DNA of 22,963 bases from a virus (lineage: Duplodnaviria; Heunggongvirae; Uroviricota; Caudoviricetes): positions 1 to 22,963 of the IMG/VR virus record IMGVR_UViG_2802429249_000003; one strand, given 5' to 3'. The position numbers were made by a program. Every line of letters starts with the position of its first letter. The first letter of the stretch is position 1. This document shows positions 9,001 to 12,000 of this stretch, one piece after another.

Positions 9001-12000
9001 CAGATGGAACTCAGTTATGACTTTCCTGAAAAATAAGGCATCATATAAAACTGCCTGCCTCATTGCACAACATGGAGATTCTTATCTTCATATAGCCAAC
9101 CTGTATTTGCGCAAAGCATATGGGAGATAAATAAATGAAAGAAAAACAACAGAACATAACACATAAAAAAGTAAGAGTGTTGCTAACCATTGAAAATGGT
9201 GAAGTAATTTACTCAAAACATCTGTTGGATAATGAATTCGTTGGCTGCATGGATACATTTCTGTGGATGGCAAAAAGAGCTGGCTACACGATTATTCCAC
9301 CAGCAAAGGAGCAAACATTATGAATAATTCAGAGTTCCGACCAGAAGTTACGCCACATGGCATAAAAATTGGCAATACAACCATTGATTATGTTGAGGCC
9401 GTACAGCGACTTAATAATGGTGAATACGATTATCCAAATTCACACGGTTTAAGAATCCTTCAGTGTCTTGCAGAAGCCGATGATGCCAGATTACTGGGAA
9501 GATTTTCAGTCGATATGAAAGTTACTCAATGGCGCTGGCTGTATGTGACGACGTTTATAAATGAAGAAGAAGGCAAGAACGGCACCATTGATATCCCTAA
9601 CGATGACGGAACTACAGATCGCGCAGTTATTTATAAGGGGAAGCATGGTTGCATGAGTATATACCCAGGACCACTTCGCATTGCCCTGCAAAACCATGTC
9701 GAATGGGGATTTATTGAAAAATATGGCGAAGCTGAAGGCATGGGGCGAGTTCTGTTTCTCTATCAAAATATGCTCATCGCAGATCCTGATAATGGTTTCA
9801 TTGTTTCTGCTATGGGGCGCGAAGGGCTTGAACTCCTTCTGGATGAAATGATTAACGACCTGAATACTCATGGTATGCCAGAAGCGCCAGTGACACATTA
9901 AATATTAAGAAGAAAATAATTCTTCCCGTTTTTTACTAACCGTTTATATGAAAAGCAACCGTGAATTAAACAGAGTAAAACTGATTTTAATCCTTGCCAC
10001 AGTGGTAACACTAACTGAAATTATTATTCTCTTTATTGCGCTGTCAGTCGGTTAAAAATATCGGGATACCACAGACCAATGAGACTGTATTTCACAATAG
10101 TAATTTTACTGGCAATTATCGCATGCATTTACGGATTACTCGTTCCGTTCCTTATATCCATGAAGGATACGATAGCAGTTATTTCTGGCTTTGCACTGGC
10201 GTTTTTGACCCCGCCCTGCATTTATGCCATTTACAAGGGTCTTTCTTTCACTAAGGATAAAAGATGAAAAAAATTATTTTTGCTTTAGCCATTGTTCTGC
10301 CGACTATTGGCCTCGTCGGTTGCGATCGCGTTGAACCAGGTAATGTTGGCATCAAGGTAAATAAACTGGGCGACGACAAAGGCGTCGGTGAGGTGGTCGG
10401 TGTTGGTCGCTACTGGACTGGCTGGAATACTGAAGTTTACATCTTCCCCACCTTCAAGCAAATGAAGACCTACGATGAACCGTTCAGTTTCCAGATGAGT
10501 GACGGTACAACCATCGGCTATCACATTGGCGTGGCCTACAAAGTTGATCCATCCAAAGTTACCACGGTGTTTCAGACCTACCGCAAAGGCGTGGATGACA
10601 TTACCGACACTGACCTGCGCCAGAAGATCGCCGACGCACTCAACCGACTGGCCAGCAAAATGACCACTGACAAATTTATCGACGGCGGCAAGTCTGAGCT
10701 GCTGGATGAAGCTCTTAAAGACATTCAGGCAGAGATGACACCTATCGGTATTCAGGTAATGAGCCTCTCATATGTAGGTAAGCCGGAGTACCCGTCAACC
10801 GTTATCGACAGCATTAATGCCAAAGTCACGGCGAACCAGAAAACACTGCAGCGCGAGCAGGAAGTTAAACAGCGCGAAGCGGAAGCCAACATGTTGCGCG
10901 CGGAAGCTGCCGGACAGGCTGATGCGATTCGCACAAAAGCCCAGGCCGAAGCCGATGCTATTCGTTTACGCGGTGAAGCTCTGCGCCAGAACCCCGGTGT
11001 TATGGAGCTGGAAGCCATCAATAAATGGAACGGCATACTGCCGCAATACATGACCAGCGGTGCTAATACACCATTTATCCAGGTTAAATAACTTATACGC
11101 CCGGCAGGCCGCCGGGCTAAGGGAAATGCAGATGAACACCCAGAATACTCAACCGCAAATAATGAACTATGCCCCGAATCTGACGTCATGCGGACGCATG
11201 GCAAAACAAACCGTTCGATTAACTTTCGGGCTATGGGAATACCGCGAAACATTCGAAGTCACTGTCGGCGGCAATCTGACCGGACTGGATGTTATCAGTT
11301 GCGCTATTGAAAGTCTGTACGCAACGCTGCCTTATGAAGAAGTCGAGGATGAGCGCGATATCATAGCCACCATTAATATCGGCGGACTGGAATGCAAGGA
11401 TGAAAACCTGTCCGGAGAGCTCTGGCTTGCCGGGATGCTTATCTCAGCAGAAATTATCAGTATTGAACCCGCTACAAACATACGGCTCTGAAGTTCTCAC
11501 TATTCAGAGAGCAGGAGAAAAAATGTTCGCTTTGATTAATCAGGGACAACTGTATACCGACAGTGCCGGTTACCCGGTAAAAATTATTCGCTGCATAAAT
11601 AACATCGTGTTGTACAGAAGAATGGATGGGCGAACACAGTCGGTAAAAATAAACGATTTTAATGAATCGTTTGAACGGATCGATCACCAGGAATACCGAC
11701 AAATTCTGGCAGAAACAGAGCAGGAAACTCATCTGAAGAAATTACGAGCCATGCAAAGGAAGTAAAGAATGAATAAAGCGTTTGAGCTATGGGTACGCCA
11801 GCGTTACGGCAATCGCTATGACCTGACGCGAGATGTTGACGGTTTCTACTGTCGTGAAATTGTGAAACGAATGTTTGAAGTGTGGTGCCACTGCCGTGGG
11901 CTGAATGTTGTATGAGGTGAACTGTGGGGCTGGATTGCGTACCTATATCAACCTACTGCCGCAACGCAGGAGAAACGGTTGATGCCGTTAACAAACGGAT

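Follow-up and report, generated by a model that had tools for sequence, protein, structure and literature searches.

A virus sequence of 22,963 nucleotides (IMG/VR record IMGVR_UViG_2802429249_000003, positions 1 to 22,963; the whole stretch is referred to as the window) represents the early-left arm of a lambdoid prophage of the phiP27 type. It raises the question of which of the small genes lying between its repressor and integrase genes form a functional unit, and what such a unit might do. An earlier sequence-only reading had singled out three co-oriented open reading frames (ORFs) as a membrane module; all three are present at exactly the coordinates proposed, 9948-10055 (35 aa), 10079-10267 (62 aa) and 10264-11091 (275 aa). 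The second and third encode a small protein with two transmembrane (TM) helices and a lipoprotein of the SPFH superfamily. As judged from comparison of sequences, these two are an obligate coupled pair that moves between unrelated phages and is sometimes fused into a single protein. We hold with moderate confidence that the two genes (10079-11091) make up a mobile phage cassette for a periplasm-facing SPFH cage and a TM fence that hold a conserved host client.

An SPFH lipoprotein and its two-helix partner

The downstream gene of the pair (10264-11091, + strand) encodes a 275-aa SPFH/Band-7 lipoprotein, an assignment made from Pfam and PHROG profiles, an AlphaFold2 (AF2) model and a Foldseek search. 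Residues 22-208 match PF01145 (Band_7) with E = 8.8e-31, scoring 107.7 bits where the cutoff is 23.6, and the 275-aa protein matches phrog_200, a family labelled 'lipoprotein', with E = 1.3e-112. The AF2 monomer model (mean predicted local distance difference test score, pLDDT, 75.9; predicted template modelling score, pTM, 0.55) shows a beta-rich SPFH1 domain, an alpha/beta SPFH2 domain, a single 65-residue helix (residues 178-242) and a disordered tail. The SPFH1/SPFH2 body (residues 21-177; 10324-10794, + strand) is delimited by the Pfam match and by pLDDT values of 70-95, while the coiled-coil helix and the C-terminal tail (residues 243-275, with a KWNG-x-LP motif) are encoded at 10795-11088 on the same strand. 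Residues 245-275 have low pLDDT, compatible with an element that becomes ordered only in an oligomer, and the W-[ND]-G-x-[LMT]-P core of the tail is retained in distant phages. Profile match, helix and fold matches uphold the description of this protein as SPFH-like with a coiled-coil tail.

When the model was compared with the PDB, Foldseek placed HflK/HflC (7vhq, E = 2.6e-13), prohibitin (8rrh) and erlin at the top and stomatin, flotillin, QmcA-YbbJ and the major vault protein lower down; the Foldseek probability was 1.00 for HflK/C, prohibitin, erlin, stomatin, flotillin and QmcA. By sequence, the nearest solved relatives are prohibitin-2, to whose coiled coil the profile aligns, and HflK. 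The protein reaches neither of the equivalog families for the bacterial pair, scoring 24.8 bits for HflC (TIGR01932, cutoff 134.4) and 23.5 bits for HflK (TIGR01933, cutoff 159.4). Nor is it one of two tandem paralogues of the HflK/C kind: the window holds a single SPFH gene at this place, flanked by the genes for the 62-aa TM protein and a DUF5406 protein.

Members of the SPFH superfamily carry an N-terminal anchor, which here is a predicted lipid anchor instead of the more common TM helix or hairpin. The signal peptide with its lipobox (MKKIIFALAIVLPTIGLVGC20; 10264-10323, + strand) ends in L17-V-G-C20, which conforms to the bacterial-lipoprotein pattern [LVI][ASTVI][GAS]C as a sequence-based prediction. 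The lipobox cysteine is kept in 19 of 20 aligned relatives. Asp21 occupies the +2 position, and throughout the enterobacterial clade this residue is Asp (16 of the 19 Cys-bearing relatives) or Glu (three). By the established +2 rule, Asp at this position leads to retention in the inner membrane of E. coli; the SPFH lipoprotein of enterics is thereby predicted to stay in that membrane. A widespread SSU5-like variant (P0109, 175 contigs) has Tyr in place of the lipobox Cys (IIGYDRV). Having lost Cys20, this variant is not lipidatable, and may stay anchored through an uncleaved signal sequence in an HflK-like topology.

The upstream gene (10079-10267, + strand) was identified as an ORF, as a member of phrog_1130 (E = 2.5e-23) and by a pattern of purifying selection: variable sites are distributed over the three codon positions as 12/7/26, with 33 synonymous against 22 non-synonymous changes. 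The SPFH profile match, the codon-position pattern of the partner and its membership in phrog_1130 indicate that both genes are real. In agreement with the earlier view of a two-TM protein, the 62-aa product combines a pair of hydrophobic segments and a short loop with a C-terminus rich in Lys and Arg. The end of the first helix bears a conserved loop motif, P23-F-L-I-S-M-K-D-T31 (10145-10171, + strand), for which the family consensus is P-x-[LM]-[ILV]-S-[AS]-x-[DST]. In the partner alignment (A2), columns Y18, L21, P23, S27, V34, G37 and P45 are invariant. The loop motif is also found in partners from Pseudomonas, Alcaligenes, Rhizobium, Burkholderia, T5-like and crAss-like phages, as well as in the fused proteins described below. 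Partners range from 49 to 84 aa, each with two TM helices and a short loop, and are 20-39% identical.

The partner stop codon and the SPFH start codon overlap in an ATGA at 10264-10267 (+ strand), preceded by an AAGGA Shine-Dalgarno sequence some 10 nt upstream. This overlap, already noticed in the sequence-only reading, is on its face an arrangement for translational coupling. An overlap of 4 nt or similar recurs in P88, MY01, Pseudomonas U2, Rhizobium LG08, Burkholderia phiBt and two prophage loci (L093 and L095). Indeed, a partner homologue lies directly 5' of the SPFH gene, mostly overlapping it, in otherwise unrelated phages. Carriers of the pair are P2-like P88 and related prophages, P1-like plasmids and SSU5-type phage-plasmids; MY01 and Pastis are virulent N4-like carriers; and further examples are Pseudomonas phage U2, an Alcaligenes N4-like phage, Rhizobium phage LG08 and Burkholderia phages of the phiBt/phiE125 type. 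A T5-like Salmonella phage has both genes with another one between them, and in a Bruynoghevirus and a crAss-like phage of Bacteroidota the partner is found upstream of the SPFH gene. Counting one pair split by IS1 and one partner contained within a long ORF, 15 of 15 species-level genome loci have the pair, and a reciprocal search from partner proteins confirmed the association. That a small membrane protein is paired with the SPFH protein is the most robust result of this analysis, and is further strengthened by gene fusions.

Several loci deserve separate mention. In the crAss-like genome cr126_1 (L121, 700-1713), a 64-aa two-helix ORF with the sequence NMISQANT precedes an SPFH lipoprotein (..SSCERIDAG..), so that the partner family seems to reach phages of Bacteroidota. 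In Shigella flexneri SFBU1023 and E. coli ECMA0423 an IS1-like element of about 770 bp that bears IS1-type terminal repeats is inserted exactly between the partner and SPFH genes (L102, 3233-4000; L103), and the pair is uncoupled there. Yersinia pestis NCTC5923 carries the cassette at 80% protein identity on a 108-kb contig. In Caulobacter phage phiCbK, a 116-aa multi-TM protein overlaps the SPFH start and a canonical partner is not obvious.

Fusions were sought exhaustively in 1.84 billion representative proteins. The search returned 226 clusters at E <= 1e-30, of which the best 150 were inspected; at least 12 of these 150 contain N-terminally extended proteins in which a motif-bearing partner is followed, in frame, by a signal peptide, a lipobox and the SPFH body. 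One fusion was verified in DNA, in three contigs and in a phage-like context. Such Rosetta-stone fusions imply that the two proteins work together. A candidate from Dyella (L116, 3731-4804) turned out to be a false upstream extension, read in a frame other than that of the partner, and was left uncounted. At the Dyella and Luteibacter loci the neighbouring genes gave no functional hint.

The fusions also bear on topology. Their architecture (two TM helices, signal peptide, SPFH) fits a periplasmic SPFH domain, and for this domain to be exported after what is the third hydrophobic segment, the partner must have both its ends in the cytoplasm. The partner is thus predicted to have an N-in/C-in topology that places its conserved loop in the periplasm, an orientation with which the positive-inside rule agrees.

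The two proteins differ markedly in conservation. Mature SPFH proteins are 75-95% identical across lambdoid, P2, P1, SSU5 and N4-like phages, and this conservation, set against the divergence of the partners, is consistent with a structural adaptor combined with a host-directed effector. At the nucleotide level, a similarity of 86-91% to the P2-like (P88) and P1-like copies spans 10312-11058, the core of the mature protein only; the signal peptide, the last ten or so codons and the partner gene differ between the window and those copies. The confinement of similarity to the mature core points to recombination breakpoints inside the gene and to mosaic exchange of the mature domain.

The sequence-only reading had likened the pair to NfeD-stomatin operons. 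The likeness holds for operon architecture and design. As in the stomatin/QmcA-NfeD operons (QmcA-YbbJ, 8z5g; archaeal PH1511-PH1510), an SPFH gene shares an operon with a small membrane partner, an arrangement found in nearly every cassette lineage checked. The logic of an SPFH protein with a membrane adaptor is likewise the same, QmcA and YbbJ forming one complex in 8z5g and the cassette having its fusions and its conserved operon. The likeness does not extend to the family. The identification of the partner as NfeD was rejected since six of six diverse partners left the NfeD family unmatched even at E <= 10, and 62 residues forming two TM helices are too short for the NfeD oligonucleotide/oligosaccharide-binding (OB) fold, which partners of about 60 aa lack. 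The SPFH domain, moreover, is predicted to be periplasmic in the cassette protein whereas it is cytoplasmic in QmcA. When SPFH proteins of prokaryotes were classified, neither the HflK/C nor the prohibitin-type subfamilies were found to have an NfeD partner (Hinderhofer et al. 2009; PMC2636767).

Genomic setting and likely expression

Along the + strand, the cI repressor gene (LexA/S24-type, 7323-8054) is followed by a gene for a helix-turn-helix (HTH) protein (8158-8574) and three small ORFs with no function assigned; 3' of these come the module, DUF5406 and DUF4222 genes, and the excisionase and integrase genes (12061-13260). The placement of the module downstream of cI was therefore correctly recognized. 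With phiP27 L05 and its flanks the module shares 97.6% identity, and with Stx2a/Stx2d-converting phages about 93%. Among 5,426 complete E. coli genomes, 570 hold a match to it; of their 660 matching places, 240 are plasmid-borne. The cassette is common in Shiga toxin (Stx)-converting phages and in pathogenic E. coli. On a wider scale, a tblastn search of 50,697 phage records found 637 (~1.3%) with an SPFH relative, and many of the carriers are strictly virulent.

Directly 3' of cI, an operator/promoter-like region (8074-8153, + strand) is a candidate OL/PL. It contains direct repeats (D1 and D4) and an inverted repeat (I1). Sequences upstream of cI are duplicated downstream of it, 7335-7354 pairing with 8074-8093 and 7184-7197 with 8098-8111; a 15-bp inverted repeat (8109-8123/8139-8153) has a folding energy of -20 kcal/mol (z = -4.6); and a promoter-like TTGCCA-17-TACCAT lies at 8098-8126. 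The region is likely an OL/PL-type operator and promoter, or else the binding site of the adjacent HTH protein. A promoter and terminator scan of 7000-12200 gave counts no higher than the shuffled expectation, and no promoter claim made here rests on the scan alone; a search for the palindromic operator TTGATAC-N5-GTATCAA gave results not above chance. If the OL/PL-like region is real, the module belongs to a repressor-controlled early-left operon, which agrees with the placement that the sequence-only reading had given it.

The position of the cassette in other phages is of the same kind. P2-like phages have it within an early operon, between cox and replication gene A, translationally chained to its neighbours. 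In P1-like plasmids it occupies the interval from dmt to ban, downstream of the Pban of P1, a promoter under C1 control; in N4-like phages it adjoins the genes for the phage RNA polymerase and dUTPase; and in virulent T5-like and N4-like phages it is found in early or middle regions. Judging from these positions, we infer early lytic expression of the cassette, upon infection or induction, rather than a lysogenic-conversion function: early-operon positions and virulent carriers both argue against a classic gene of that type. In canonical P1 (L117, 69.3-71.0 kb) the dmt-ban interval contains upl, which encodes a small protein, plp, which encodes a lipoprotein of 125 aa, and tciABC, where the P1-like plasmid has the cassette (L004, 3231-4275). 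The possibility that plp and upl of canonical P1 are themselves the cassette was rejected, plp being only 125 aa long. The dmt-ban slot appears to be exchangeable and to house envelope-related accessory genes.

Two hairpins flank the module. One, immediately after the SPFH stop codon (11092-11121, + strand), is GC-rich and lacks a T-tract (-16.8 kcal/mol, z = -2.2); it overlaps the Shine-Dalgarno sequence of the next gene, which encodes the DUF5406 protein. The other (9909-9934, + strand), after the upstream ORF, is a weak AT-rich hairpin (GAAGAA/TTCTTC) with a run of six T residues (-4.3 kcal/mol, z = -1.76), which may be a weak terminator and was unflagged by the terminator scan.

Directly 3' of the prophage integrase gene, a second tyrosine integrase gene (13587-14864) marks the start of an unrelated segment (13587-17932). 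The segment has the appearance of a distinct integrative island that was inserted in tandem at the same site and carries a candidate defence gene. The gene in question encodes a protein of 932 aa that has a Cap4-type nuclease domain at its N-terminus, an AAA_22 ATPase and, at its C-terminus, a SEC-C motif, and for which PADLOC returned a weak match to LmuA alone (3e-6).

The proposed periplasmic cage and its rivals

On the basis of the lipobox and the fold, the SPFH protein would be exported and lipid-anchored on the periplasmic face of the inner membrane, where, from its fold, it could assemble into a domed cage of the HflK/C, prohibitin or erlin type. The partner, predicted to have cytoplasmic ends and a periplasmic P-x-L-I-S loop, would dock beneath the rim of the cage and supply the transmembrane 'fence' that HflK and HflC make from their own N-terminal helices. 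The cage would thereby enclose a patch of inner membrane and sequester or regulate a conserved host client. To our knowledge, all structurally characterized relatives (HflK/C, prohibitin, erlin, stomatin, flotillin and QmcA) form a domed ring over a membrane patch and act through control of clients; the cages of the three best fold matches, HflK/C, prohibitin and erlin, lie on the membrane side away from the cytoplasm.

Of the known systems, the HflK/HflC-FtsH cage of E. coli (7vhp, 7vhq, 7wi3, 9cz2) offers the best full-length fold match, covering body, coiled coil and tail, and the best, though weak, match by NCBIfam and PDB sequence; the predicted periplasmic SPFH domain and the history of hfl genes with phage are further points in common. 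The differences are that identity is about 17%, that the phage protein comes as a single SPFH gene and not as a K/C pair, that a lipid anchor replaces the N-terminal TM helix while TM segments are provided by a separate two-TM partner, and that the cassette is phage-borne. A similar balance emerges from the prokaryotic prohibitins (SPFH4 of Hinderhofer et al. 2009) and the eukaryotic prohibitin and erlin cages. These share with the phage protein the best PDB sequence match (prohibitin-2, through its coiled coil), the top folds and a predicted non-cytoplasmic orientation, and relatives of the phage protein are labelled 'prohibitin family protein' by NCBI; they differ from it in the lipoprotein anchor, the obligate two-TM partner and the residence on phages and other mobile elements.

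As to the client, the very high conservation of mature SPFH proteins across phage lifestyles and receptors suggests that it is a conserved host component. Three of the relatives (HflK/C, prohibitin and QmcA) associate with FtsH-type proteases, and phage regulators, sigma-32 and chaperones are all under FtsH control. Since the nearest relatives have such proteases as partners, the predicted topology matches that of HflK/C and FtsH governs phage regulators, this protease is the leading candidate for the client, though we put it forward only tentatively.

A number of observations weigh against the cage and its early expression. The cage is deduced from the monomer model alone, with the pLDDT and pTM values given above, and FtsH contact, known for HflK/C, is extended to the cassette by analogy only; archaeal viruses also carry SPFH genes, and archaea, as far as we know, lack FtsH. 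The +3 residue of the lipoprotein is Arg, whose effect on Lol avoidance is uncertain, and non-enteric homologues have Ser, Thr, Gly or Ala at +2, so that some of them may sort to the outer membrane. The 177-nt gap 5' of the cassette holds, besides the weak hairpin, a weak promoter-like site, making independent expression in the lysogen possible. Immediately upstream of the SPFH gene in the FelixO1-like Erwinia phage vEam_PM_27 (Ounavirinae) no obvious partner was found, small ORFs for soluble proteins being present instead; this phage and phiCbK, with SPFH identities of 26-37%, may lie at the edge of the partner family. Finally, a Pasteurella prophage SPFH protein, PM0222, a possible member of this clade, is detectably expressed in the lysogen and found in outer-membrane vesicles (PMC9872710).

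Among other explanations for the cassette, superinfection exclusion survives best, even if we judge it unlikely. Here the cage and the partner would seal or occupy the inner membrane of a lysogen or an infected cell and block the DNA of later phages. An envelope-located lipoprotein with a small membrane protein resembles known exclusion proteins; the cassette lies near the immunity region in the window and in early regions of lytic phages, as do the T4 exclusion genes imm and sp. It is accessory and dispensable, to judge from the IS1-split pair in Shigella, and moves between phages in the fashion of a moron. T5 Llp, phi80 Cor, T4 Imm/Sp, P22 SieA and HK97 gp15 are likewise small phage envelope proteins, often early or near the immunity region. 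Yet no sequence or fold relation to them was found, none of them is an SPFH protein, and each serves a single route whereas carriers of the cassette use many. Phages that differ in receptor and route of entry (lambdoid, P2, P1, SSU5 and N4-like) share a nearly identical mature protein, while the known exclusion proteins are route-specific and SPFH proteins are not known to block DNA entry. A PADLOC search at E <= 1 with the three ORFs and five neighbours gave no match for the module, the only defence or exclusion homologies being generic HTH matches on repressors, and the PHROG labels are generic. In temperate carriers, furthermore, the cassette sits inside repressor-controlled early operons, contrary to expression in the prophage state. 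The suggestion that a gene downstream of cI should serve exclusion or lysogenic conversion is thus right about the position, and exclusion could operate in an infected or induced cell, but the deduction from position is weakened by the repressible operon and by the virulent carriers.

Considerably doubtful, too, is a role in membrane stabilization or lysis timing, in which the cassette, like flotillins or the SPFH proteins associated with PspA, would guard the proton-motive force, or would organize or delay holin and secretion events. SPFH proteins are general scaffolds of membrane microdomains and stress responses, and in P1-like plasmids the cassette fills the slot occupied in P1 by the membrane-related upl-plp-tciABC. 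In the Kayviruses (Staphylococcus phage K group), mbpS and the gene for a small holin-like membrane protein lie between the endolysin gene and tgl (PMC7150955). This MbpS/MbpV pair, to which no role is assigned, is again a phage SPFH protein adjoining a small membrane protein (PMC7150955), and MbpS is a distant relative by tblastn (~25% identity); it differs in having a Gram-positive host, an N-terminal TM helix in place of a lipobox and a gene in the lysis region. Lysis genes, in contrast, are not adjacent to the cassette in the window or in P2-like, N4-like, SSU5-like and T5-like phages.

We consider it very improbable that the cassette encodes a lysogenic-conversion or virulence lipoprotein, which the prophage would express and which, exposed or released in vesicles, would alter host-cell interactions. 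The model for such a role is PM0222 of Pasteurella multocida, an HflK/C-like SPFH protein of similar size from a lambda-like prophage, studied as a virulence factor and as an agonist of Toll-like receptors (TLR) 1/2 in outer-membrane vesicles, whose deletion attenuates virulence (PMC9872710); its prophage origin and the frequency of the cassette in Stx-converting phages and pathogenic E. coli speak for the parallel. Strictly virulent phages of non-pathogens and crAss-like phages carry the cassette, however, and a virulence role would make no sense there; Asp at +2 and the inner-membrane partner point to retention in the inner membrane of enterics, and TLR2 stimulation is a generic property of lipoproteins.

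The last alternative concerns the extent of the unit. The sequence-only reading had counted the 35-aa hydrophobic ORF (9948-10055, + strand) as a member of a three-gene module, in which it would be an additional small membrane subunit. It is intact in 49 of 82 close relatives, where it would yield a plausible single-pass peptide. In the other 33 loci it is broken, 32 having unrelated sequence in its place and one an ATG to ATA change, while both other genes are kept. The 82 loci derive from an IMG/VR scan with the SPFH alignment, which returned only lambdoid loci of 96-99% identity and was used for this comparison and not as a survey of diversity. A Shine-Dalgarno sequence was not found for the ORF. 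Its variable sites are spread over codon positions as 10/4/10, with nine synonymous against 18 non-synonymous changes; it shows no codon-position bias and is as variable as the flanking non-coding DNA. In all other phage lineages carrying both genes it is absent. The 35-aa ORF is probably not a gene and sits in a mosaic junction outside the cassette, and its being a third subunit is hardly credible.

Significance for phages and their hosts

Both members of the pair are already catalogued as uncharacterized PHROG families (phrog_200 and phrog_1130). Our literature searches found no functional study of this phage SPFH clade, and all papers found describe the role of phage SPFH proteins as unknown; PM0222 was the only prophage-encoded SPFH protein with experimental data in the literature searched. 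The obligate partnership, the loop motif, the fusions and the predicted architecture were absent from the papers that these searches found. A specific two-helix partner of the proteobacterial and crAss-type proteins, a conserved loop predicted to be periplasmic and repeated fusion turn a vague annotation into a defined two-component system. Phage SPFH genes at large are carried by therapeutic Kayviruses, by N4-like, T5-like and crAss-like phages, by Stx-converting prophages and by phage-plasmids of the P1 and SSU5 types.

Should the client be FtsH or another core membrane machine, the cassette would represent a general viral strategy for manipulating the bacterial envelope, and structural work on SPFH assemblies would also gain a cage that is compact and portable. 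In its broadest form, which we judge unlikely, the idea is that lytic and temperate phages of Proteobacteria and Bacteroidota share a widespread host-takeover device, an HflK/C-like cage made early in infection, with a detachable TM fence of two helices, that captures a universal inner-membrane machine, most plausibly FtsH. The hflKC system was discovered through phage lambda. If the idea is correct, the cassette would be its viral counterpart, by which proteolysis, the heat-shock response or envelope homeostasis would be re-tuned for the benefit of the phage.

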